From positions 2,912,001-2,976,000 of the forward strand of contig OZ244744.1 of the NCBI GenBank assembly GCA_965219455.1: a DNA stretch of 64,000 nt. Reading direction: 5' to 3'. Every line of letters starts with the position of its first letter. Position 1 is the first letter of the stretch. The stretch comes from Candidatus Latescibacterota bacterium. Lineage in GTDB: Bacteria; Latescibacterota; UBA2968; GCA-2709665. The notes beneath the pieces are model-generated. The model was given only the letters and a program-made list of their open reading frames with translations, was not told the origin of the DNA and made no database searches. The position numbers were made by a program, and so were the translations under genes. Shown one piece after another: positions 149 to 25,958 of this stretch.

Positions 149-1237
149 ATGCCAGCCAAATCTGTGACTATGCTTTTTCTTGCCATAAGCTTCTGGGCCT
201 GCGGCGGAATTCCGCCTACACCCTCGGAACCGCCCGCCGACCTGAACGGTTTTGAATTTGCCGGAACCATGACCACGACCCGCTTTTTTCACACGTCTAC
301 GTTGCTGAAAGACGGGCGGGTGCTGATCACGGGCGGATATGAAACGGACCGCCCTGGGCATTCATCCGCGGAGTTCAGCCACGCTACGGCGGAGTTGTTC
401 GATCCGGCAATCGGAAACTCGACAGCCACGGGAAGCATGTCGCAAGGCCGCACACAGGACACGGCAGTCCTGCTGCAGGATGGTCGCGTCCTGGTAAAGG
501 GTACCCAACTCTATCCCCCGGAGATCTACGACCCACAATCCGAAAGGTTCGCAGTCCTGGCGGACGCGCCCGAATTGAGGAGGGGTGTGGCGCTCACGAT
601 TCTTTCGACAGGAGACATTTTTACGACCGATGCGCAGGGCAACACGGGCATTATCGATCCCGAAACCTGGAGATTCACGTCCACAGGCAAGATGATCACG
701 CCTCGATCCGCCCATACGGCCACCCTTCTTCGAGATGGCCGCGTTCTCATCGCTGGAGGATTCAATGAAGGCGGCCTGGTCAAAGGATCTGAAATCTACG
801 ACCCCTCGTCCAATTCCTTTACCGAAACCGGCGAATTAAACGACAAACGGTGGCAGCACGAGGCAATGCGTCTCCAGAACGGAAGGGTGTTAATCATCGG
901 CGGGCGCAAGGGCGATATCAACACGGAAGACGCACAGTACGTGGCGACGGCCGAAATGTTCGATCCCGCAACAGGCATGTTCTCGCCGACGGGCGACACG
1001 GGACTGACATCCATCCATACCGCTTTTCTGTTGTCCAGCGGAAAGGTGTTTCTTCTGTCTGGCCGAGACGTGGCGATTTACGATCCGGCCACAGGCGCCG
1101 CCGCACGAACGGGACACAGCATCGGTCAGAATCGACTTGCATATACCATTACGCCACTGAATGACGGCCGGATTATGTTTTTCGGCGGTCTAAAGGACCT
1201 GGTATCGACAGATGAAGTCTTGATCTATTCGCCTTAG
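149..1237 (+). CDS. Kelch-repeat beta-propeller lipoprotein
   Basis: Lipobox FWACGG, Pro-rich linker, repeated R..HTATLL.DGRVLI.GG...E.(Y/F)DP motifs. Confidence 0.9.
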   Translation: MPAKSVTMLFLAISFWACGGIPPTPSEPPADLNGFEFAGTMTTTRFFHTSTLLKDGRVLITGGYETDRPGHSSAEFSHATAELFDPAIGNSTATGSMSQGRTQDTAVLLQDGRVLVKGTQLYPPEIYDPQSERFAVLADAPELRRGVALTILSTGDIFTTDAQGNTGIIDPETWRFTSTGKMITPRSAHTATLLRDGRVLIAGGFNEGGLVKGSEIYDPSSNSFTETGELNDKRWQHEAMRLQNGRVLIIGGRKGDINTEDAQYVATAEMFDPATGMFSPTGDTGLTSIHTAFLLSSGKVFLLSGRDVAIYDPATGAAARTGHSIGQNRLAYTITPLNDGRIMFFGGLKDLVSTDEVLIYSP

Positions 1238-1276: not shown

Positions 1277-1790
1277 GGCTGAGGATGTCTCCGCGCAAAA
1301 GTGTTACCGTGGGTTTCCGGCTTAAGGACAACCGAACAGACGGGAGATTCTTCGACTCCGCTCAGAATGACATGCTTTGCAATGACCATTGGCGAAATCT
1401 GTCTGCCAGGTATCGGCACAAACTGTCATCCTGAGGAGGCCGCCAGGCCGACGAAGGATCTACTGCGGCATTGGACCATCCCCGCGCGATTTGCGCGTGC
1501 GGATACCTGAGAGGCAGCACGTCCGCCCCTGCGTAGAACACAAGCGACGGGAGATTCTTCGGTTGCGCTCAGAATGACATGTTTTGCAATAGCCATAAGC
1601 GAAATGTTTCGGTCATACCTGCGCCAATACTGTCATCCTGAGGAGGCCGCCAGGCCGACGAAGGATCTACTGCGGCATCGGTTCACAATAGCGTGATCTG
1701 CACGTGACCCGAGCCGGACAGGCGGCACGTCTGCCTCCTGCACAACACAAGCCGCGAGAGATTCCTCGACCGCGCTCAGAATGACAGATT
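1277..1790. repeat. BIME/REP-like mosaic, family A (GGGAGATTCTTCGACTCCGCTCAGAATGACA alternating with TGTCATCCTGAGGAGGCC...GAAGGATCT)
   Basis: Five alternating-orientation units near 1342, 1424, 1549, 1631, 1757; same family at ~20798, 20881, 22381, 25125. Confidence 0.8.
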
Positions 1791-11775: not shown

Positions 11776-11911
11776 CCGCCTTTAGCGGTCGTCCACATAA
11801 TAGCGCTGACGTCAACTGATTCGGTTTTTGATTCAAGCTGATGGCTAATTGCTGATAGCTCTGTCTGAGGGGGCCGGGGGGAGAGGTTACGACGCCCAGG
11901 AAGGATACGAA

Positions 11912-12994
11912 ATGTCCGGTCGAATGGTATCCGCGTTGTTAATCGTCTCGAGCCTTATGGGTTGCGGTGGAAGCGTGCCGACGTCCCCTGAGGTTTCGAG
12001 CGATATGACGGGTTTTGAAGTCGCCGGAAAATTGACGGAAAGGCGGTTCTGGCACGCGTCGGTATTGTTGCAGGACGGCAAGGTTCTGATCACGGGCGGC
12101 GCCGCAACGGAGAGGCCGGGTTATGCGCCTTCGTCCATGTTTCGTGCCAGCACGGAAATATTCGATCCGGCAACGGGGACCTCGAGCAGAGGGGGCAACA
12201 TGTCCTCTGCTCGAACCCGCGACGTGGGAATACGGCTACCGGACGGCCGGGTGCTATTTGGAGGCGCTCAGCAGGCCCCGCCGGAATTTTTCGATCCGAA
12301 TACCGGACGATTCACGCCTGCGCCTTATGACCCCGCATTCGCGAGAATTTCCACGATGACGTTACTGCCCAATGGGAAGATCCTCACCTATTACTCATTG
12401 GGCGTCGCCATCTTCGACCCGAACACGGGGAACTTCACCTTACTTCCGGGGACGGTCGTTATTCGAGGAGGCAATACGGCGACCCGGCTGCGGGATGGGC
12501 GTGTACTCATCGTTGGCGGCGGCAATGCAGAGGGCATGGTTAAGGAATCCGAAATCTACGATCCATCCTCCAATACCCTTACCCGGACAGGCGACCTGAA
12601 ATACGAACGGCGAGGACACAGAGCGATTCTACTTCCGGACGGCAGCGTGTTGATCATTGGCGGGAGCACAGGCGAAGGGGAGTCTGAAGCGTCGGTAACG
12701 GCCGCCGAGCGATATGACCCCGCGACGGGGACGTTCTCATCAGAAGGTGATCCCGGAATCGAACCGGTTTACGCGGCCACGCTGCTGCCATCGGGCAATG
12801 TGTTTATCATCGGACATAGCGGCGAGGTCGTTCTCTACGATCCGGCCACTGGCGCGTTTGGCCCTACCGGAGACAGCATAGGTGAAAACCGCGCCTTATA
12901 TACGACAACGCTCCTTCGCGACGGCCGTGTGCTGATTGTTGGTGGCCTGAAGGACCTCGAGGCAACGGATCATATCCTCATATACAGCCCGTAG
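11912..12994 (+). CDS. Kelch-repeat beta-propeller lipoprotein
   Basis: Lipobox LMGCGG, Kelch motifs, closest to 149..1237 (shared GGLKDL..TD..LIYSP end); ATG 11912 after AGGAAGGA. Confidence 0.9.
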   Translation: MSGRMVSALLIVSSLMGCGGSVPTSPEVSSDMTGFEVAGKLTERRFWHASVLLQDGKVLITGGAATERPGYAPSSMFRASTEIFDPATGTSSRGGNMSSARTRDVGIRLPDGRVLFGGAQQAPPEFFDPNTGRFTPAPYDPAFARISTMTLLPNGKILTYYSLGVAIFDPNTGNFTLLPGTVVIRGGNTATRLRDGRVLIVGGGNAEGMVKESEIYDPSSNTLTRTGDLKYERRGHRAILLPDGSVLIIGGSTGEGESEASVTAAERYDPATGTFSSEGDPGIEPVYAATLLPSGNVFIIGHSGEVVLYDPATGAFGPTGDSIGENRALYTTTLLRDGRVLIVGGLKDLEATDHILIYSP

Positions 12995-16618: not shown

Positions 16619-16891
16619 AGGCACGTCGACAAGGTCAGCACAGGCAATGACCACGCCCCTATTCGTATTGGGCTGAAAGGGAATCATATACCCGACAAAA
16701 CGCAATTGAAACCTTGAAATATTTCAACGATCCAACCGTCATTAACCTTTTGGAATCAATTAGCCGAAACGATACCTTTACCCTAAAGGTTGTTTTCCAG
16801 TTCGAGCGTGAGCATTGAGTGCCCTGGAATTAATCCAGAATCGAAGAGCATTGTCTCAGTAAACTTCCTTCTACAATCTCGCCATCACCAC

Positions 16892-16929
16892 AAGCCCAGG
16901 CGAGTTGTCCGCCTGGGTTTTAGTTTTAG
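16892..16929 (+). terminator. Intrinsic terminator
   Basis: AAGCCCAGGCG-loop-CGCCTGGGTTT followed by T-rich tail. Confidence 0.6.
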
Positions 16930-17050
16930 CTTCTGAGATCGGATAGTCTTACTCTGGCCCCGGTTTTAACGGCGTTAGTGGCTGTTCGGCCGGCAGGGGG
17001 CGGCTGGCGACGTTTGAGGGTCGGTAGGTAAACAATGAGGGCGGTTCTAA

Positions 17051-18731
17051 CCTGACTAATTCATGAAACTGAACGGAACAGTGTTTTTGGAAATAGAAAG
17101 TGATCTGTAGAAGGGAAAATATCCGAATGACGTGTTGGTGACGCGATGATGAGTAATTTTGGATGTGCCGTCAGCATTGAGGGGTGTCGAGTTCTTTGAT
17201 TTGTGGTTGGAAAGGACAGACGGATGCCTTGGTCTTACTTTGTGGCGATGAGAAAGGGATGGATCGGCCGGCGTGAAACGGCGTTATGGATATGCCTTTG
17301 CCAAATTACAGAGGATGGTGTCATAAAGGTGTTTCAAGGGAAATGATGTTGGCAAATGGAGTTTGATTTTGGTCTTGAGTTCGGACACTCGCCCGGCGAC
17401 TTTGAGAATGCGATTCTGAATGGTATTAAACTGGGCGTGCGTCCACTGGGTAGCCCGGAGTCCTTTTTCGGTAAGGGTATGCATCAAGACATAAGCGGCA
17501 CTATGCAGGAAGAGACGGAAGTGATTGGCTTCGAAGGTGTGGCAGGAGGTACGATCGGAATGGAGGAAGGTTTTGTGATTCTTGATGAAGTTTTCCATCC
17601 TGCCGCGCGCGCTATAGACGGTTTTGTAGATGAATGAGGGCTGGCTACTTTTCAGGTTGGTCACGACAAAGCGTGTATTGGCTTGTCCGGAAGCGGTGAT
17701 TTCAGCTTTGTAGATGATGCGTCTTGGCACGGCCCAGGTATGTGCCTGGTAAGCGAAACAGGTAAATAACTGCACGGGCTGTCCGGTTTCCCGATACTGG
17801 GCCTTTGCCTGCTCGATCAACGCGTGTCCCCGTTGTGCAAGCCTGGCATTGCCCGTCTGTCCCAGCACAAAATACACGTCTTGCTCGTCGCAAAAGTCGT
17901 GGACCTCAGGACAGGAAAAATGGCCATCGCCACGCAAAAAGAGTCGCACGTCCGGCCACGCCTCACGAAGGATTTTCACCAGTCGCTTAAGAATGCTGAC
18001 AATCTGTTTGCCGGTAGGACGGGCGCCCGGACGCAGCAGCGTCGTGATCAGTCTTCCTGTCCGGCCTTCATAAATGTGCAAGGGCATGTAACAGCGTTCA
18101 TCGTAATAGCCATTGAACAACGACAACTGTTGCTTGCCGTGAACCTCGTCATCGGTGTCATCGATATCCAGAACGACCGCGTCGGGAGGCCTATCGTAGG
18201 ACGCGATAAATCCGTCCACAAGGGCCTCGGCAATACGATATAAGTCCCTGCGACGAATCCCGTTTTCCAATCGACTCATCGTGGGTTGGCTGGCCAACGG
18301 CGCCCCTGATATCGGCAACCGATCACAGGCCGCCTTGAACGCAGGGTCCTCGCGCAACGCATTGCAATCGTTCGCATCTTCATACGCGCACGCGATCTGA
18401 AAGACACGCTGGCTGATCAGGTCCATCATCGTGTGATCCACATAACTTGGATGCCGACGGTCCGTTAACGCCTCGACGATCCGAGACAGGATGCCGATTT
18501 TGGACGCCACCTCTCGGAGCAGCATCAACCCGATATCGCTGGTGAGCACACCGCCATCGAAGACGGCTTCTACCGGTTTGCCCGAAACACTTGCGAAAGG
18601 AAGTGCGAGTTGACTATCTTGAACTTCCACGGTAGTTTCCTCCCAGTTCATTGTTGTATGGTTATTCGCCTAACCATAATATAATACAATGACTTGGGTA
18701 AGGAAACTACCTTTTTTGTGAATAATTGGGG
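17051..18731 (-). mobile_element. IS1380-family insertion sequence, 1681 bp
   Basis: Imperfect terminal IRs (CCTGACTAATTCA / CCCCAATTATTCA), 4-bp direct repeat CTAA at 17047-17050 and 18732-18735. Confidence 0.85.
17284..18651 (-). CDS. IS1380-family DDE transposase
   Basis: FDGG.LTSD.G, ASQPT.SRLEN, LDID.TDD..HG.QQ, RGD..F, Y..RG.MEN.IK. Confidence 0.95.
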   Translation of the reverse strand: MNWEETTVEVQDSQLALPFASVSGKPVEAVFDGGVLTSDIGLMLLREVASKIGILSRIVEALTDRRHPSYVDHTMMDLISQRVFQIACAYEDANDCNALREDPAFKAACDRLPISGAPLASQPTMSRLENGIRRRDLYRIAEALVDGFIASYDRPPDAVVLDIDDTDDEVHGKQQLSLFNGYYDERCYMPLHIYEGRTGRLITTLLRPGARPTGKQIVSILKRLVKILREAWPDVRLFLRGDGHFSCPEVHDFCDEQDVYFVLGQTGNARLAQRGHALIEQAKAQYRETGQPVQLFTCFAYQAHTWAVPRRIIYKAEITASGQANTRFVVTNLKSSQPSFIYKTVYSARGRMENFIKNHKTFLHSDRTSCHTFEANHFRLFLHSAAYVLMHTLTEKGLRATQWTHAQFNTIQNRILKVAGRVSELKTKIKLHLPTSFPLKHLYDTILCNLAKAYP

Positions 18732-18762
18732 CTAAAACGGCTTAAAATGACAGGGCCCTTTT

Positions 18763-19329
18763 ATGTATAGCTTTTGGATATTTTGTCTGTTGGCGTTCTT
18801 GCCGGCATTAGCTGAGGCACAACAAAAAGGATGGAGGATCGAGAAATCGGTTGATCCAATGACTGATTCTATAACTGTTAAACTTTCAAACACAGGAACT
18901 AATATTTATGAGGATAGTGATGATCGTATCGTTCTTACACTAACCTGTCGCGGCAGGGATGGAAACACCAGAACTTTCCTTGGCTTACATATTATAACAA
19001 GATCCGTAGTTAATCCGGACAAAAATCAATTACACCATATAGCTATGCGCTTTGGTAGAGAAACTAAAAATATCGTTTTTCCAAACTGGAAAAGTAAGGT
19101 AACGTCATTAAGAAAAGAATCATCTGTCGAACACACAATTAAAATGGAAGCACGACTTGTTGAAAAACGCACTAAATTCATAATCCATAAACTAAAGTCC
19201 GGAGTTTATGCTCAACTATTAATTAAAGCAATAGTTCCACCGTTGGTTGATATAATGACTTTTAGACTGAACATTGCAGGATCAAGATATCAGGTACGAA
19301 AGTTCTTTAGGCAATGCGAAAAGAAGTGA
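18763..19329 (+). CDS. Low-GC hypothetical secreted protein
   Basis: Signal peptide (ALAEA), W.I....DPMTD...L.L.C; visibly AT-rich relative to flanks. Confidence 0.65.
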   Translation: MYSFWIFCLLAFLPALAEAQQKGWRIEKSVDPMTDSITVKLSNTGTNIYEDSDDRIVLTLTCRGRDGNTRTFLGLHIITRSVVNPDKNQLHHIAMRFGRETKNIVFPNWKSKVTSLRKESSVEHTIKMEARLVEKRTKFIIHKLKSGVYAQLLIKAIVPPLVDIMTFRLNIAGSRYQVRKFFRQCEKK

Positions 19330-19405
19330 ACTGCCTTTACTTATCATAAGGAAGGCCTTGGACGCAACGCGTAAATCGTTCCGACCATGATTTAGAGGAC
19401 AGAAG

Positions 19406-20524
19406 ATGACTTCCAGAATCGCGATAGTGCTGTTGATCGTCTCGAGCTTCTGGGCTTGCGGAGGAGATTCGGTGACGACGTCGGAGCCGCCCGCCCTTGA
19501 AAGGGGTCTCCAGGAGGTCGGAAATCTGACTCGACCCCGGTATCAGCACGTCGCGACGTTATTGCCGGATGGCAAAGTACTGATCGCCGGTGGCTACAAG
19601 GAGGGGATCCCGAACTTCACCGACGTATCGAATCGTCACATCAGCGCGGAGATATTCGATCCGGTAACCGGGACCTCTTCGCAAACGGGAAACATGACCG
19701 TCGGTCGATCCACGGACCACGGAATATTGCTTCCCGACGGTCTCGTTCTGATTATACCCAGATATCATGATTTCCCCATTGAAATATACGATCCTCACGC
19801 CGCTCGATTCAACGCAGTGGCGAAAATACCCTGGTATCCGCCCATTACCACCGTAAATCTGCTTCAAAGCGGCAAGATATTCGTGACGACCCAGCAGCAC
19901 ACTGCTGTCTTCGACCCTGTTGCGAGCGCCTTCTCCCCAATAGTCGCGTTGGAGAAAACACGAAAAAACCATTCGGCGACTTTGCTGAAGGACGGCCGCG
20001 TGCTGATCGTTGGAGGAACACGCGGGGGAATTGACAACGAGTTGACCGGACGGAATCTGATTTACGAACCCTCGTCAAATGCCTTTGCGGAAGCTGGTGA
20101 TCTGCAGGTCGACCGATGGGGCCATACTACGGTGCTTCTTCCGGACGGCAGGGTTCTGATCGTTGGCGGCCATACCGGTTCAGAGCATGCAAACCTTGCC
20201 GAGATGTACGACCCCGATACAAACACGTTCTGGCCGGCCGGAACTTCTGCCATTTGGCCTGCCGCCGCCCTGCTGCTGCCGTCCGGCAGAGTGTTTTTCA
20301 TCCACGGGCCTACAGGCAATATCGTACTGTACAATCCCGCTACACATGTATTTTCACCCACAGGGCACAACATAGGACCATGGCGGGACGAGGCTTCGGT
20401 CACGCTGCTTGAAGACGGCCTGGTAATGATTGCGGGAGGCTGGAAGTACAGGGACAGCTCGACACAAAGTGGCGATGGACAAGAGCGGGAGATCACGGAT
20501 CAGGTCCATATATTCACGCCTTGA
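19406..20524 (+). CDS. Kelch-repeat lipoprotein, tandem copy 1
   Basis: FWACGG lipobox, TTSEPPALERGL linker, Kelch motifs. Confidence 0.9.
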   Translation: MTSRIAIVLLIVSSFWACGGDSVTTSEPPALERGLQEVGNLTRPRYQHVATLLPDGKVLIAGGYKEGIPNFTDVSNRHISAEIFDPVTGTSSQTGNMTVGRSTDHGILLPDGLVLIIPRYHDFPIEIYDPHAARFNAVAKIPWYPPITTVNLLQSGKIFVTTQQHTAVFDPVASAFSPIVALEKTRKNHSATLLKDGRVLIVGGTRGGIDNELTGRNLIYEPSSNAFAEAGDLQVDRWGHTTVLLPDGRVLIVGGHTGSEHANLAEMYDPDTNTFWPAGTSAIWPAAALLLPSGRVFFIHGPTGNIVLYNPATHVFSPTGHNIGPWRDEASVTLLEDGLVMIAGGWKYRDSSTQSGDGQEREITDQVHIFTP

Positions 20525-20661
20525 GTGTGAAATTAAAAAATGGACCTCTCCCCCCAGCCCTCTCTCCTGCGAGGAGAGGGGGAGCCGAATGAAGTGTTGC
20601 GTAAACAACGTTTTATACGCGCCGTGAATGCTCGGACAACGCCATCTCGGCACCCTCACTC

Positions 20662-20960
20662 TGAGGAAGCCGGTGTGAAGGTGGGGCAGACATTCCTGTC
20701 TGCCCGCTTCGCCAGCGTTCTGAGCTTGCCTTGAGGCTTGCGATGTCTCCGCGCAAATTTGTTTACTGTGCTATTGCGTCAGGACAATCGATCAGACGGG
20801 AGATTCTTCGACTACGCTCAGAATGACATGCTTTGCAATAACCATCAGCGAATTCTGTCTGTCAGGTATCGGCAAATGATTGTCATCCTGAGGAGGCCCT
20901 GTCTGCCGTGCTCGGCACAGGCAGGCGTCAGGCCGACGAAGGATCTACTGCGGCATCGGA
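20662..20960. repeat. Family B unit (TGAGGAAGCCG..GTGAAGGTGGGGCAGACATTCCTGTCTGCCCGC) plus family A units
   Basis: Family B cores at 20681, 22491, 23733, 25008, one after each tandem Kelch gene. Confidence 0.8.
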
Positions 20961-21133
20961 TCATGCCCAAGCGTCTTGCATTCGGTCCGACCGGACAGGC
21001 GGCACAACCGCTCCCCTCTCCGTGCCGGGGAGGGGCCGGGGGAGGGGTCGCGTTCCAGGACGCGGTAAATAGGCCGCAGACGCGACGTCCAACTCTTGGC
21101 AGCCGGCTCTTTTCTTGTCGCGGAGGACACATA

Positions 21134-22279
21134 ATGACAGCCAGAATCTTGTTTGCGCTGTTCGTCGTCTCCAGCTTATGGGGCTGTGGAAGCGAATCGG
21201 TGACGACGTCGGAGCCGCCGGCGCTGGAACGGGGTCTCCACGAGGTCGGAATAATGACCCAACCCCGTTATCAACATGCCGCGACGTTATTGCTGAATGG
21301 CAGGGTACTGATCGCCGGAGGCTACGCGGAATTGCTTCCCACATTCACAGAGCCCCCTCCGCCCAATACCGTCTTTCCCCAACCGAAGCGTCATATCAGC
21401 GCGGAAATATTCGATCCTGAAACCGGGACGTCTTCGCCAACGGTAGACATGACCGTCGGTCGTGACTCTGATAACGGCATCCTGCTTCCGGACGGTCGCG
21501 TCCTGATTGTGCCCGGATATGGTCATCTCCCCATTGAGATGTACGATCCACATTCCGGCAGATTCGATGTCGTGGCGCACGTACCCTCAAATGCAATGAT
21601 TTCGACCGCGACCCTGCTGCCCAGTGGAAAGGTCTTTGTCACTGCCATGGAACACACGGGTGTCTTCGACCCGGATGCGCGCGCATTTACCTCCATATTC
21701 GCGATGGACCATCGACGTAGACTGCATACGGCGAGTCTGATGAAGGACGGCCGAGTGCTGATCGTTGGAGGAATACGCGGCGGAATCAAGGACGGGATGG
21801 TCGGACGGAATCTGATTTACGATCCCTCGTCCAAGGCCTTTGCGGAAGCCGGGAATCTACAGTTCGACCGCTTATTCCATAAGGCGGTGCTCCTTCAGGA
21901 CGGCAGGGTCCTGATCATCGGCGGTATTGCCGGTGAAGGGCCTTTCGTACCTACAGCCGAGATGTACGATCCCGAAACAAACGCGTTTTCGCCGGCCGGC
22001 GTTTCTGCAATCGATCCGAGCGCCGCCCTGCTGTTGCCGTCCGGCAAAGTGCTCCTTATCCGCTCGATTAACGGCGACATCGTACTTTACGATCCGGCCG
22101 CACATGAATTTTCTCCTACAGGGCACAGCATAGGGTGGCGGTCGCAGCCTACGGTAACTCTGCTTACAGACGGCCGCGTGATGGTTGCCGGTGGATCGAA
22201 GGACAAGGAGAGTTCCACAGCCGGCGGACATGTGTTCGAAGAGGAGATCACGGATCAGGTACTGATATTCACGCCTTGA
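21134..22279 (+). CDS. Kelch-repeat lipoprotein, tandem copy 2
   Basis: ATG 21134 after GGAGGA; LWGCGS lipobox; Kelch motifs. Confidence 0.9.
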   Translation: MTARILFALFVVSSLWGCGSESVTTSEPPALERGLHEVGIMTQPRYQHAATLLLNGRVLIAGGYAELLPTFTEPPPPNTVFPQPKRHISAEIFDPETGTSSPTVDMTVGRDSDNGILLPDGRVLIVPGYGHLPIEMYDPHSGRFDVVAHVPSNAMISTATLLPSGKVFVTAMEHTGVFDPDARAFTSIFAMDHRRRLHTASLMKDGRVLIVGGIRGGIKDGMVGRNLIYDPSSKAFAEAGNLQFDRLFHKAVLLQDGRVLIIGGIAGEGPFVPTAEMYDPETNAFSPAGVSAIDPSAALLLPSGKVLLIRSINGDIVLYDPAAHEFSPTGHSIGWRSQPTVTLLTDGRVMVAGGSKDKESSTAGGHVFEEEITDQVLIFTP

Positions 22280-22550
22280 ATGCGCACGTGCGCCCACACG
22301 CTGAAGGAAGGCGTGAGGCTGAGGATGTCTCCGAGCAGATGTGTTACCGTGGGTTTCCGGCTTACGGACACCCGAACAGACGGGAGATTCTTCGACTCCG
22401 CTCAGAATGCCATGCCTTCCAATAACCATCAGCGAAATGTGTCGGTCACACGTCGGCACAAGTTGTCGTGTTGAGGAAGCCGATGCGAAGGTGGGGCAGA
22501 CATTCCTGTCTGCCCGCCTCGCGATCGTTCTGGCAAAAAGGAGACACAAG

Positions 22551-23684
22551 ATGACCACCAGAATTGGACTCGCGCTATTGGTTGTCACGAGCTTCTGCGC
22601 TTGCGGAAGCGACTCGGTGACGACGTCGGAGCCCCCGGCGCTTGAAAGGGGTCTCCACGAGGTCGGAAACCTGACTCGACCCCGGTATTGGCATGCCGCG
22701 ACATTATTGCAGAATGGCAAGGTCTTGATCGCCGGCGGCTATGCGGAGTTGATTAAGAGGCATCAGGGACGACCTCCCCCGAATACAATTACGCCCCAGA
22801 CAGAGCGTCATATCAGCGCCGAAATATTCGATCCTGAAACCGGGACCACCAGGCCTACGGGAGACATGACCGTCAATCGCAGAGAGGACCACGGAATATT
22901 GCTTCCCGACGGCCGAGTTCTGATCATACCCGGATTTCGTTATTTCCCCATTGAGATGTACGATCCTGATTCCGGCAGATTCGACGCAGTGGCATTCATG
23001 CAGGAGGCGGGGATCGAGACGGCCACCCTGCTGCCAAACGGAGAGGTCTTTTTGACCAGCACGGTACACGCCGGTGTCTTCGACACCATTACGGGGACAT
23101 TTCCCGCCACGTTCGCGAATTATCGTCCCCGATGGCGCCACACGGCGACTTTGCTGAAGGACGGCAGGGTGTTGATCGTTGGAGGGGTGCATTTCGGAAG
23201 GGAAACGCACCTGGCCGGGAGGAATCTGATTTACGACCCCTCGTCCAAAGCCTTTTCGGAAGCCGCGAAGCTTCAGTTCGACCGCAGGAATCATAAAGCG
23301 GTGCTTCTCCAGGACGGAAGGGTCCTGATCATAGGCGGTGGCGATGCCGATTTGCGGACGTTTCGACAGACAGCGGAGATATACGACCCTGAAACAGACT
23401 CGTTTTCGCCGGCCGGCGTTTCCAACATCGACCCGAGCGCCGCCGTGCTATTGCCGTCCGGCGATGTGCTCCTCATCCAATCATGGAAAGGTGATATCAC
23501 ACTGTATAATCCAGCCACACACGCATTTTCTCCAACAGGACACAGCATAGGGTGGAGGGATACGCCTACGGTAACGCTGCTTGCCGACGGCCGCGTGATG
23601 ATTGCCGGCGGATCGAAGAATACAGGCAGTGGACACACGTTCAAGGAGGAGATTACGGACCAGATCCTGATCTTCACGCCTTAG
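22551..23684 (+). CDS. Kelch-repeat lipoprotein, tandem copy 3
   Basis: ATG 22551 after AAGGAG; FCACGS lipobox; Kelch motifs. Confidence 0.9.
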   Translation: MTTRIGLALLVVTSFCACGSDSVTTSEPPALERGLHEVGNLTRPRYWHAATLLQNGKVLIAGGYAELIKRHQGRPPPNTITPQTERHISAEIFDPETGTTRPTGDMTVNRREDHGILLPDGRVLIIPGFRYFPIEMYDPDSGRFDAVAFMQEAGIETATLLPNGEVFLTSTVHAGVFDTITGTFPATFANYRPRWRHTATLLKDGRVLIVGGVHFGRETHLAGRNLIYDPSSKAFSEAAKLQFDRRNHKAVLLQDGRVLIIGGGDADLRTFRQTAEIYDPETDSFSPAGVSNIDPSAAVLLPSGDVLLIQSWKGDITLYNPATHAFSPTGHSIGWRDTPTVTLLADGRVMIAGGSKNTGSGHTFKEEITDQILIFTP

Positions 23685-23817
23685 GGGGGATACAGGTGGC
23701 AAAACTATCAATTTGAGGAAGCCGACGTGAACGTGGGGTGGGCATTCCTGTTTGCCCGCCCGGCCGGTCCTGTCGTGTAGCTGTCGCGTTCACAGACCCT
23801 TGACGCGGGAGAAAAAG

Positions 23818-24960
23818 ATGAATGCCAAAATCGCAATGGCGCTGTTTATCGTCTCGAGCTTATGGGCATGCGGAGGCGATACGGTGACGACGCCGGAACC
23901 ACCCGCACTCGAACGGGGTCTTCACGAGGTCGGTAATTTGAGCAAGCCCCGGTATTGGCATGCCGCGACATTATTGCGGAATGGCAAGATCCTGATCGCC
24001 GGCGGCACCGCGGAACTACCTACAGGACGCGAGCACCCCGCTCCCGGCGTTCCCGTCATCCTTGGCCAGCGCCCAGGTCGACTTGCCAGCGCGGAGATAT
24101 TCGACCCCGAAACCGGAATATCTTCGCCAACGGGTAGCATGACCGTCAGTCGTTACGCAGACCACGGAATATTGCTTCCCGACGGCCGAGTCCTTTTCGT
24201 ACCCACATTTGGTCATTTCCCCTTTGAGATGTACGATTTTCACTCCGCCAGATTCGATTTTGTGACAATACTGTACCCGGGCATTTCGATCCGGACTACC
24301 TCGCTGCTGGCCAACGGAAAGGTCTTTTTGACCACCACGGAACTCGCCGGTGTCCTGGACCCCGCTACAGGCACAATTTCCGCGATTATCTGGATGGATC
24401 ATCCGCGATTTGGCCATACGGCGACTGTGATGAAGGACGGCAGGGTGCTGATCGTTGGAGGGAAGCTTGTAAAAGGGGACGGCGGATTGGTTGGCCGGAA
24501 CCTGATTTACGATCCCTCGACCGGAGCTTTTTCAGAGGCAGGCGATCTGCAGTTCGACCGACTAAATCACACAGCGGTGCTCCTTCAGGACGGCGGAGTC
24601 CTGATCATGGGCGGTAGCGATGCCGATTTTCGGTCGTCCGTACAGACGGCGGAAATGTACGACCCTGAATCAGACTCGTTTTCGCCAGTCGGCGTTTCGA
24701 CAATTGAACCACTGGCAGCGCGTTTGCTGCCGACCGGCGACGTGCTCCTCATCCGCCAGGATAACGGTGATATCGTACTATTCAATCCCGCAACACATGC
24801 GTTCTCTCCCACGGGACACAGCATAGGGTGGCGGACACGGCCTACGGTAACGCTGCTTGCAGACGGTCGCGTGATGATTGCCGGCGGATCGAAGGATACA
24901 GGCAGTGGACACACGTTGAAGGAGGAGATTACGGATCAGGTCCATATATTCACGCCTTAG
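23818..24960 (+). CDS. Kelch-repeat lipoprotein, tandem copy 4
   Basis: ATG 23818 after GGGAG; LWACGG lipobox; Kelch motifs. Confidence 0.9.
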   Translation: MNAKIAMALFIVSSLWACGGDTVTTPEPPALERGLHEVGNLSKPRYWHAATLLRNGKILIAGGTAELPTGREHPAPGVPVILGQRPGRLASAEIFDPETGISSPTGSMTVSRYADHGILLPDGRVLFVPTFGHFPFEMYDFHSARFDFVTILYPGISIRTTSLLANGKVFLTTTELAGVLDPATGTISAIIWMDHPRFGHTATVMKDGRVLIVGGKLVKGDGGLVGRNLIYDPSTGAFSEAGDLQFDRLNHTAVLLQDGGVLIMGGSDADFRSSVQTAEMYDPESDSFSPVGVSTIEPLAARLLPTGDVLLIRQDNGDIVLFNPATHAFSPTGHSIGWRTRPTVTLLADGRVMIAGGSKDTGSGHTLKEEITDQVHIFTP

Positions 24961-25226
24961 AGAGACACAGGAGCCGTCACTGAAAATCTGAGGGAGCCGG
25001 TGTGAAGGTGGGGCGGACATTCCTGTCTGCCCGCCTCGCGTATCCTTCTGAGGAGGCCGAATTGGCGGCGATGTCTCCGCGCAAATTTGTTTACTGTGCT
25101 ATTGCGTCAGGACAATCGATTAGACGGGAGATTCTTCGACTTCGCTCAGAATGACATGGGGGTCGATTGTCAGATCGAAGGAATGGCGCGCGAGAACCTG
25201 TCTGCAAAACGGAAAAGGATAACGAT

Positions 25227-25763
25227 ATGCAACTGAAGTTTGGATGGAAGTCCTGGGTGTTGATGGCGGTCGCGGTGGTCCTGGCGGGCGTCGCGTTGGG
25301 TCAGATTCTCGTGGAGACGCCGGAGCCGGAGAACGCGCTGCCCATGGGCCCGGCCGCACCCGACTTTGCACTTGAAAGTCCGGACGGTTCGGTCATCCGG
25401 CTGTCCGACAATAAGGGCCGTGTTGTCCTGATCAACTTCTGGGCCACCTGGTGCGTGCCGTGCCTGTACGAATTACCCCACGTTCAGAAATTATACGAAC
25501 GATACCGCAATAAAGGCCTGACCGTACTTGCCATCAGCACGGACTTCGATCGGGCGCGCGTGAAACCGTTTGTAAGGAAAAACGGTTACACCTTTCCGGT
25601 ACTGTTCGCCGATCCGGGCGTTCAATCCGACTACGAAGTCCGGAGCATTCCAACCACCTACCTGATTGACGGGAAGGGCCGTCTCAGGTTCATGCAAATG
25701 GGCTACGGCCCGGACACCGGAACGGAGTTGGAATGGGCCCTCGAACAACTGTTGGGGCGGTAG
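25227..25763 (+). CDS. TlpA/ResA-like thiol-disulfide oxidoreductase
   Basis: APDF.L, GRVVLINFWATWCVPC..ELP, IPTTYLID. Confidence 0.9.
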   Translation: MQLKFGWKSWVLMAVAVVLAGVALGQILVETPEPENALPMGPAAPDFALESPDGSVIRLSDNKGRVVLINFWATWCVPCLYELPHVQKLYERYRNKGLTVLAISTDFDRARVKPFVRKNGYTFPVLFADPGVQSDYEVRSIPTTYLIDGKGRLRFMQMGYGPDTGTELEWALEQLLGR

Positions 25764-25958
25764 ATGGACGGTGGGAGAAATGATTCGAGGAATGGAATTC
25801 GGAATGGCGGGGGCTGCTTAAGCAAACCGGCGGCCGCGCCATGCAGGAGCGCTGAGCCGCCGGTGATCGTACAATTGCCGGATCGGATCGCGGGGATGCA
25901 GTGACCAGAGTCGCATCGGGTGTGCCGATAAATCGACCGACAGGCATCCGCAACGCGT

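Follow-up and report, generated by a model that had tools for sequence, protein, structure and literature searches.

A tandem array of Kelch lipoprotein genes in an uncultured Latescibacterota lineage, probably an old paralog array spaced by generic REP/BIME-like repeats

We analyzed a stretch of 64,000 nucleotides (nt), hereafter the window, from a Candidatus Latescibacterota bacterium (assembly GCA_965219455.1; bases 2,912,001-2,976,000 of the single 5.84-Mb contig OZ244744.1). It contains four co-oriented tandem genes for Kelch lipoproteins, K1 to K4 (window 19406-24960), separated by spacers rich in short repeats, among them a hairpin unit, u1, and a second unit of about 91 nt, u2. A preliminary description, made from the letters of the window alone, had read each gene with its palindrome as a cassette-like unit that may be amplified, shuffled or excised. 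We consider it probable, at roughly 80%, that the locus is instead an old array of tandem paralogs under birth-and-death evolution, whose spacers consist of generic repeats resembling repetitive extragenic palindromes (REP) and bacterial interspersed mosaic elements (BIME). Excision or capture of the genes as cassettes is unsupported, and ordinary tandem duplication with loss explains the layout.

Within the window, the association between repeats and Kelch genes is exactly as first described: one u1 copy stands behind each of the four tandem genes (Table 1), and both units are found only beside Kelch genes. The u1 core, GGGCAGACA-TTCC-TGTCTGCCC, lies inside a conserved unit of 45-60 nt and forms a 22-nt near-perfect palindrome (9-4-9); RNA folding of copy 1 gives a 9-bp stem with a UUCC loop. 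With up to 3 mismatches allowed, the window has three matches to the 26-nt core (0 expected), and the fourth copy (23736-23757), too diverged for the pattern, was found by nhmmer. The u2 pattern was matched five times against 0 expected, that is, at the three places listed in Table 1, at 1284-1374 and, partially, at 1542-1581.

The palindrome had also been called dedicated to these genes, and this does not hold at the scale of the genome. A profile search with nhmmer identified 63 copies of u1 and 54 of u2 in the 5.84 Mb, all of them intergenic. The Kelch region accounts for 4 u1 and 5 u2 copies, and the other 59 and 49, respectively, lie elsewhere. Copies of u1 follow no orientation rule (34 of 63 are on the same strand as the upstream gene and 29 on the opposite one), and they adjoin only 4 of the approximately 12 Kelch_6 genes of the genome, namely the array genes. 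By a per-base BLAST count, essentially all of the array spacer sequence consists of repeats with about 5-65 other copies. Pfam annotation of 53 open reading frames (ORFs) flanking the repeats in 12 repeat-rich regions revealed six tandem MacB/FtsX permease paralogs, five Ser/Thr-kinase-FGE paralogs, four leucine-rich repeat (LRR) and two WD40 proteins, as well as group II intron reverse transcriptases, PP2C phosphatases, Sua5, Clp protease, a tyrosine recombinase (XerD) and others. The genome-wide search for enrichment beside Kelch genes that the preliminary description had called for thus returned units scattered without Kelch bias beside diverse genes. The six MacB/FtsX-type permease paralogs form a tandem array of their own on the minus strand (genome 2,607,551-2,624,629, locus L042) in which most spacers carry u1 and/or u2; four u1 copies are located 1-5 nt past stop codons, antisense to the genes, and give this array the same one-hairpin-per-gene look as the Kelch array.

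The spacers of the Kelch array are not uniform and are composed of different module sets: a GC-rich hairpin module, u1, u2, a box element and a hairpin behind K1; u2 and u1 behind K2; u1 alone behind K3; u1 and u2 behind K4. A further Kelch paralog in the window (11849-12994) has neither unit next to it. All 54 u2 copies terminate in the 12-nt box TGTCATNCTGAG; the genome contains 106 of these boxes (reversed control, 0). The 3' arm of u2 together with the box element, its inverted partner, folds as one long hairpin (window 20800-20949; -62.6 kcal/mol, z = -4.7). No u2 is present within 120 nt of 50 of the 63 u1 copies, and where the two do neighbor each other the orders u1>u2 and u2>u1 each occur 7 times. 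The GC-rich hairpin module is nested within the u1 tail at 4 loci, other u1 copies being uninterrupted there, and orthologous spacers behind the A-type gene differ in whether they contain u2 and other modules. The modules act as separate pieces that were once mobile. We also considered u1 plus u2 as a single element with inverted TGTCATNCTGAG ends and rejected it, given the 50 of 63 u1 copies that lack a nearby u2 and the presence of an upstream box in just 11 of 63. Two further observations concern the modules themselves. Copies of the GC-rich hairpin module with 89-94% identity occur several times in other genera (genomes G015 and G016), a conservation that is unusually high for an intergenic repeat. 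Behind the distant Kelch paralog K0 (window 1284-1790), u2 is followed by a BIME-like run of boxes at 1361, 1424, 1568, 1631 and 1775, which form alternating pairs with a period of about 207 nt.

The regular placement of u1 in the array is best understood from the start codons. Across the arrays of 11 genomes, all 44 u1 matches are on the gene strand. The strict pattern places the core 36 or 61-63 nt 5' of the ATG in 24 of 49 array genes, and 4 more genes have diverged cores in the same place; the segment that separates u1 from the ATG is conserved in paralogs and across species. Moreover, u1 is found ahead of the first array gene in 6 genomes, and the last or only array gene has no u1 behind it in G012, G001 and G011. 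Given the fixed distance to the ATG, the u1 before first genes and the lack of one after last genes, the duplicated unit is u1 plus leader plus gene, and 'gene then palindrome' is what one obtains by reading this array from one register further on. The 36-nt leader (...CGCCTCGC.A.C.TTCTG.C..AAAGGAGACACAA-ATG) is homologous to the generic u1 tail found elsewhere (...CGTCTCGCTATCCTTCTGCCGGAAAGGAGACAGAAG), and a by-eye alignment of the two suggests that the dispersed element provides the AGGAG ribosome-binding site of the array genes. What had been proposed as a gene-plus-palindrome unit is therefore amplified together, in the form of u1, leader and gene, with nothing to indicate an integron-like cassette machinery: no integron integrase passed its cut-off, and the genes are paralogs and not unrelated.

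These data suggest the following course of events. A u1 hairpin would have arrived upstream of an ancestral array gene, after which it would have been copied along in a duplication unit of u1, a 36- or 61-nt leader with the ribosome-binding site, and the gene. Because u1 was copied with leader and gene, each spacer would have one u1, always co-oriented with the genes. u2 and the other modules would have been added, lost or exchanged spacer by spacer, leaving spacers that appear to be mosaics of generic, family-wide intergenic modules (u1, u2, the TGTCATNCTGAG box element and the GC-rich hairpin module). Gain, loss and reordering of array genes most likely proceeded by unequal homologous recombination between genes that are 60-80% identical and between their spacers.

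The taxonomic range of the repeat and the history of the array are consistent with this reading. At up to 2 mismatches, every one of the 14 other genus genomes searched has 19-64 copies of the u1 core (reversed control, 0). Three genomes from other genera have 17, 14 and 4 copies, and 68 genomes from two other families of the class have 0. The Kelch array itself occupies one conserved site, between the same left-flank gene and a ResA-like gene, in 11/11 genomes examined, with a copy number of 1 (G011), 3 (G001), 4 (G013, G009 and the genome under study, G000), 5 (G002, G012, G014) or 6 (G008, G010, G006). A maximum-likelihood tree was built from 49 array proteins and two outgroups, omitting the partial copy of a different upstream paralog in G014. 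It resolves orthogroups common to several species, with support of 95-100 in the Shimodaira-Hasegawa-like approximate likelihood-ratio test (SH-aLRT), and since these orthogroups are shared across species, most duplications are older than the species. The order of paralogs is mostly collinear, not fixed, and G011 retains B' alone. The compared genomes represent species, not strains, and the array is dynamic on that scale. The preliminary description had expected ordinary duplication of generic repeats to show as units scattered over the genome and as an array fixed in number and order across strains; the units are scattered, and the arrays differ among species both in order and in copy number (1-6).

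The hairpin stem appears to be under constraint. Over the 63 genome copies of u1, the nine stem pairs comprise 525 Watson-Crick, 26 G.T, 1 A.C and 15 other combinations, and eight copies carry the doubly changed, compensatory stem GAGC...GCTC. In 43 array copies from 11 genomes the corresponding numbers are 329, 40, 4 and 14; the diverged copy ahead of K4 has four changed stem pairs, all of them G.T wobbles (4/4). The excess of G.T favors a folded single strand of the u1 polarity as written. REP hairpins between genes can stabilize or end transcripts. By analogy, u1 in the transcript would most likely be an intercistronic stem-loop that sets or protects mRNA ends. Other roles were considered for u1 and rejected: as an intrinsic-terminator-like site, it is without a T-tract, and the frames that would make the GAGC...GCTC variant a coding 3' end are short and inconsistent (42-104 codons at 8 loci). 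An Rfam scan of 18600-25800 with E up to 1 gave no match on u1 or u2 and only chance matches to microRNA models in the end of an insertion sequence (IS), and a promoter and terminator scan found no canonical site in any array spacer. The u1 core sequence was not found in the literature searched, where the three matches were fish primers matching a 13-mer.

Several observations weigh against a history of mere duplication and loss with passive repeats and a hairpin acting in mRNA. The closest pair of genomes differs in gene order (A,B',C',C'' in G000 and B',A,D,B in G013), a degree of rearrangement beyond what simple gain and loss would produce. Some repeat copies are far better conserved than neutral filler: a block of 189 nt (window 25016-25204) that begins in the u1 loop, includes u2 and stops about 22 nt short of the ATG of the ResA-like gene at 25227 is identical between G000 and G013, around which the flanking DNA is about 88% and coding sequence about 90% identical. 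Either recent conversion or conservation as a regulatory leader made of repeats may account for this block. Likewise, u2 at 20740 and u2 at 25068 share 98% identity, as against about 66-72% for K1 and K4. Spacers between adjacent paralogs contain u1 or u2 in 12 of 109 cases compared to 59 of 3767 other spacers, an enrichment of about 8-fold (Fisher p = 4e-7) that overstates the effect, copies within one array not being independent events. The paralog arrays behind it include LRR, WD40, kinase-FGE and permease genes, and it could mean that the repeats promote duplication, beyond being merely copied. As for the stem, shared descent reduces the independent changes to about 6 distinct G.T-type against 2-3 A.C-type events, as read from the variant lists. 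In addition, u1 is antisense in the permease array, so that mRNA transcribed there from the common GGGCGG variant would contain C.A mismatches. Since permease-array mRNA would carry the opposite u1 strand, the G.T asymmetry could equally reflect founder copies or a single-stranded DNA stage, not mRNA function.

Some of these same observations can be explained if the repeats themselves drive plasticity, near-identical u1/u2 blocks being preferred substrates of homologous recombination here and in other paralog arrays. The 98% identity of the two u2 copies, the enrichment between adjacent paralogs and the fact that the K1-K2 spacer block of G000 matches a block behind a different paralog in G013 all point in this direction. 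We nonetheless regard this explanation as rather unlikely: copying of repeats along with their genes would in itself produce an enrichment, no breakpoint has been placed in a repeat, throughout the genus many spacers carry a 60-nt u1 alone, and the paralog bodies themselves provide more than 1 kb of homology. A different role for u1, as a double-stranded operator for a dimeric transcription factor with a regulon of about 60 sites including the Kelch array, would account for the perfect 9-4-9 palindrome, its strictly intergenic location and its fixed distance to the array start codons. Outside the array, however, the position of u1 with respect to genes varies; the conserved unit, of 45-60 nt, is not symmetric and has subfamilies with long shared flanks and nested insertions, as is typical of dispersed repeats; and the changes in the stem, which either allow wobble pairing or are compensatory, point to a folded single strand. 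An operator is accordingly quite improbable. The paralog array with generic repeat spacers remains our preferred explanation, in which the enrichment, the u2 identity and the 189-nt block are compatible with recombination mediated by the repeats or with a regulatory role gained by exaptation, with no need for cassette machinery.

The cassette system that the preliminary description had in mind would mobilize gene and palindrome by an unrecognized hairpin-specific recombinase, integron-like or similar to REP-associated tyrosine transposases (RAYT) and other HUH enzymes, and produce a variable repertoire of surface binders. The single co-oriented hairpin per gene, as in integrons where each co-oriented gene is followed by a palindromic element, the variation of copy number and order across species, the strand-asymmetric G.T pattern, which suits a single-stranded intermediate, and the presence of a RAYT in the genome are all compatible with such a system. 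Other details speak against it, and we judge it to be very improbable. The hairpin is not gene-specific, with 59 of its 63 copies beside unrelated genes elsewhere. No match in the genome exceeded the integron integrase (intI) cut-off of TIGR02249 (265 bits; best match, 88.9 bits). There is no tyrosine recombinase among the 8 scanned ORFs flanking the array, and the nearest of 5 Phage_integrase matches in the genome is more than 500 kb away. The array genes are old paralogs that fall into orthogroups across 11 genomes, not unrelated acquisitions. An attC site is an imperfect palindrome, about 57-141 nt in length, that has paired core sites and extrahelical bases; u1, a generic genome-wide repeat with a short near-perfect stem and a 4-nt loop, appears unlike it.

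It had further been suggested that a RAYT or tyrosine recombinase be sought with the same palindrome on its flanks, and this search was negative. One tyrosine recombinase does have two u2 copies behind it, but it is XerD (366 bits, cut-off 329.6), and we take the adjacency to be chance. Of two Y1_Tnp matches in the genome, one is an intact RAYT and the other is without a clear ORF. The RAYT is flanked on both sides by arrays of a different palindrome, TCGAGGGCAGGATGCCCTCGGTCC, and so represents a classical REPtron; the genome has only about 16 copies of this palindrome, including one at window 56441, and the genome profile search placed no u1 copy near the RAYT at 1.91-1.92 Mb. A related proposal takes u1, whose stem substitutions are wobble-only and strand-specific and which stands at a fixed place before each gene, as the recombination site of an unrecognized single-strand system (HUH-like or other) that reshuffles u1-leader-gene modules into species-specific Kelch sets and orders and also acts on other paralog arrays with this hairpin, such as MacB/FtsX; it strikes us as highly improbable. 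Part of the sequence is present in 21 public sequencing-run entries, with no RNA run listed among them. Public sequencing runs were checked for excision using the contigs of 4 runs, which are all short and broken at repeats. The joints in these contigs have sides of 20-55 nt with extra or unknown letters between them and lie within repeats, making them unfit to show deletions or circles. One run is without cover over K3-K4, which proves nothing, and the 10-100x higher depth of the repeats is summed over all organisms.

Contrary to what had been stated, the window is not free of recombinases, since an IS1380-family transposase is encoded about 750 nt upstream of K1 (Table 1). Together with a 188-aa ORF (18763-19329, no family match) it makes up a G000-specific insertion of about 2.8 kb (window 16640-19400) between the left-flank gene and K1, which is absent at the array site in G013, G011, G010 and G014. 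The IS1380 end has 10-12 copies in the genome. Apart from the array, genome 4,547,491-4,592,383 contains three short fragments of tyrosine recombinases that most resemble the C-termini of integron integrases (80.6, 46.7 and 30.9 bits). None reaches the cut-off, and one contains an in-frame TAG. Two duplicated, more distant Kelch genes (4,579,331-4,580,203 and 4,591,511-4,592,383) are found no more than about 45 kb from them, and the region is possibly a decayed mobile one. Elsewhere, two group II intron reverse-transcriptase/maturase genes adjoin repeat clusters (L043 9289-10659 and L050 3505-4875) with identical scores, indicating that the intron is multi-copy.

The products of K1-K4 match Kelch_6, Kelch_1, Kelch_4 and Kelch_2 above the curated Pfam cut-offs, and solved Kelch propellers in the PDB match K1 with E down to 7e-29. 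Their signal peptides end in ..S[FL][WC][AG]CG.. (motif at residues 13-19), and similar lipobox-type motifs with a conserved Cys are found across the 49 array genes. 'Kelch lipoprotein' is therefore a fair label, with lipidation predicted from the motif; database relatives of K1-K4 are named solely 'hypothetical' or 'kelch repeat-containing protein'. Two starts were revised. K3 opens in the ORF list at GTG 22341, reading through repeats, and paralog alignment puts its true start at 22551. The ResA/TlpA-like ORF to the right of the array, which is syntenic with it in 11/11 genomes, opens at TTG 25167, and the conserved ATG at 25227 is its probable start.

Table 1. Features of the Kelch array, its spacers and related loci (window coordinates unless stated otherwise; aa, amino acids)
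Feature	Coordinates	Strand	Evidence and remarks
K1, Kelch beta-propeller lipoprotein gene, 372 aa, orthogroup A	19406..20524	+	Pfam Kelch_6/Kelch_4/Kelch_1; signal peptide and Cys; ortholog 90% identical in G013, the closest relative of G000
K2, Kelch lipoprotein gene, 381 aa, B-like orthogroup	21134..22279	+	Pfam, signal peptide, tree
K3, Kelch lipoprotein gene, 377 aa	22551..23684	+	Pfam, signal peptide, tree; start fixed by paralog alignment
K4, Kelch lipoprotein gene, 380 aa	23818..24960	+	Pfam, signal peptide, tree
u1 copy 1, core hairpin 20684-20705	20660..20719	+	Pattern search, nhmmer, RNA fold
u1 copy 2, core 22494-22515, 36 nt 5' of K3 ATG; tail provides AGGAG Shine-Dalgarno (putative)	22470..22529	+	
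u1 copy 3, core 23736-23757, diverged, 61 nt 5' of K4 ATG	23712..23771	+	
u1 copy 4, core 25011-25032	24987..25046	+	
u2, 3' end is box CTCAGAATGACA; 98% identical to copy at 25068	20740..20830	+	
u2	22324..22414	+	
u2, 5' of ResA/TlpA-like gene; 91/91 nt identical to positional ortholog in G013	25068..25158	+	
GC-rich hairpin module (CCCCAGCCCTCTCTCCTGCGAGGAGAGGGG...), third dispersed repeat, ~120 nt	20535..20657	+	~46 other genome copies
Box element (TGTCATCCTGAGG...GACGAAGGATCT), inverted partner of u2 3' arm	20874..20950	+	28-35 other copies
ResA/TlpA-like thiol-disulfide oxidoreductase gene, conserved right neighbor of the array	25227..25763	+	Pfam AhpC-TSA/Redoxin; NCBIfam ResA subfamily below cut-off
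K0, more distant Kelch lipoprotein paralog	149..1237	+	Followed by u2 (1284-1374), then box repeat run (1361-1775)
Further (fifth window) Kelch paralog	11849..12994	+	Neither u1 nor u2 adjoining
IS1380-family DDE transposase	17284..18651	-	Pfam DDE_Tnp_1_4 513 bits; NF033539 385 bits, cut-off 180
RAYT, 244 aa	L002 1417-2151; genome ~1,922,864-1,923,598	-	NF047646 97.7 bits, cut-off 80

Among known systems, the array is closest to REP/BIME-type mosaics, with some traits of miniature inverted-repeat transposable elements (MITE). REP and BIME of Enterobacteria and Pseudomonas are short extragenic palindromes, often between co-oriented genes (PMC2817692, PMC3733652), and REP have a GTAG or CGTC tetranucleotide tag at one stem end (PMC3733652). 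Like these, u1 is a short extragenic palindrome with tens of copies, all intergenic, and is part of mosaics of at least 4 modules in variable order and orientation. It differs in that its core lacks a GTAG/CGTC tag, being flanked in the 63 copies by 5' GGTG and 3' GC or TT; in that the genome's RAYT carries TCGAGGGCAGGATGCCCTCGGTCC and not u1, leaving u1 without a cognate REPtron; and in its modest copy number and uncultured host lineage. The modules resemble MITE-like elements such as Correia, enterobacterial repetitive intergenic consensus (ERIC) and RUP in their length (60-180 nt), in the inverted ends of some of them, exemplified by the fold of the u2 arm with the box, in the nesting of one module within another and in their presence or absence at orthologous sites. 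No target-site duplication and no autonomous partner IS was identified for them, in which they would differ from MITE. With regard to the genes, the old shared orthogroups, the differential loss and gain and the conserved flanks are those of birth-and-death tandem paralog arrays, from which nothing essential differs; what sets this array apart is solely the dispersed-repeat hairpin that the duplicated unit carries in its leader.

The finding is thus largely ordinary: u1, u2 and the other modules are new repeat families of a known kind, several of them described here for the first time in an uncultured lineage. The idea of integrase-free cassettes is dropped as unsupported and replaced by a documented ordinary case, which illustrates that an 'only here' pattern at the level of a window can come from genome-wide repeats co-duplicated with a gene family. 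For the organism and its relatives, a dispersed-repeat hairpin is now part of a conserved leader in a multigene family, and the Kelch array, with its 1-6 copies across the genus, is a usable marker of surface-protein diversification.

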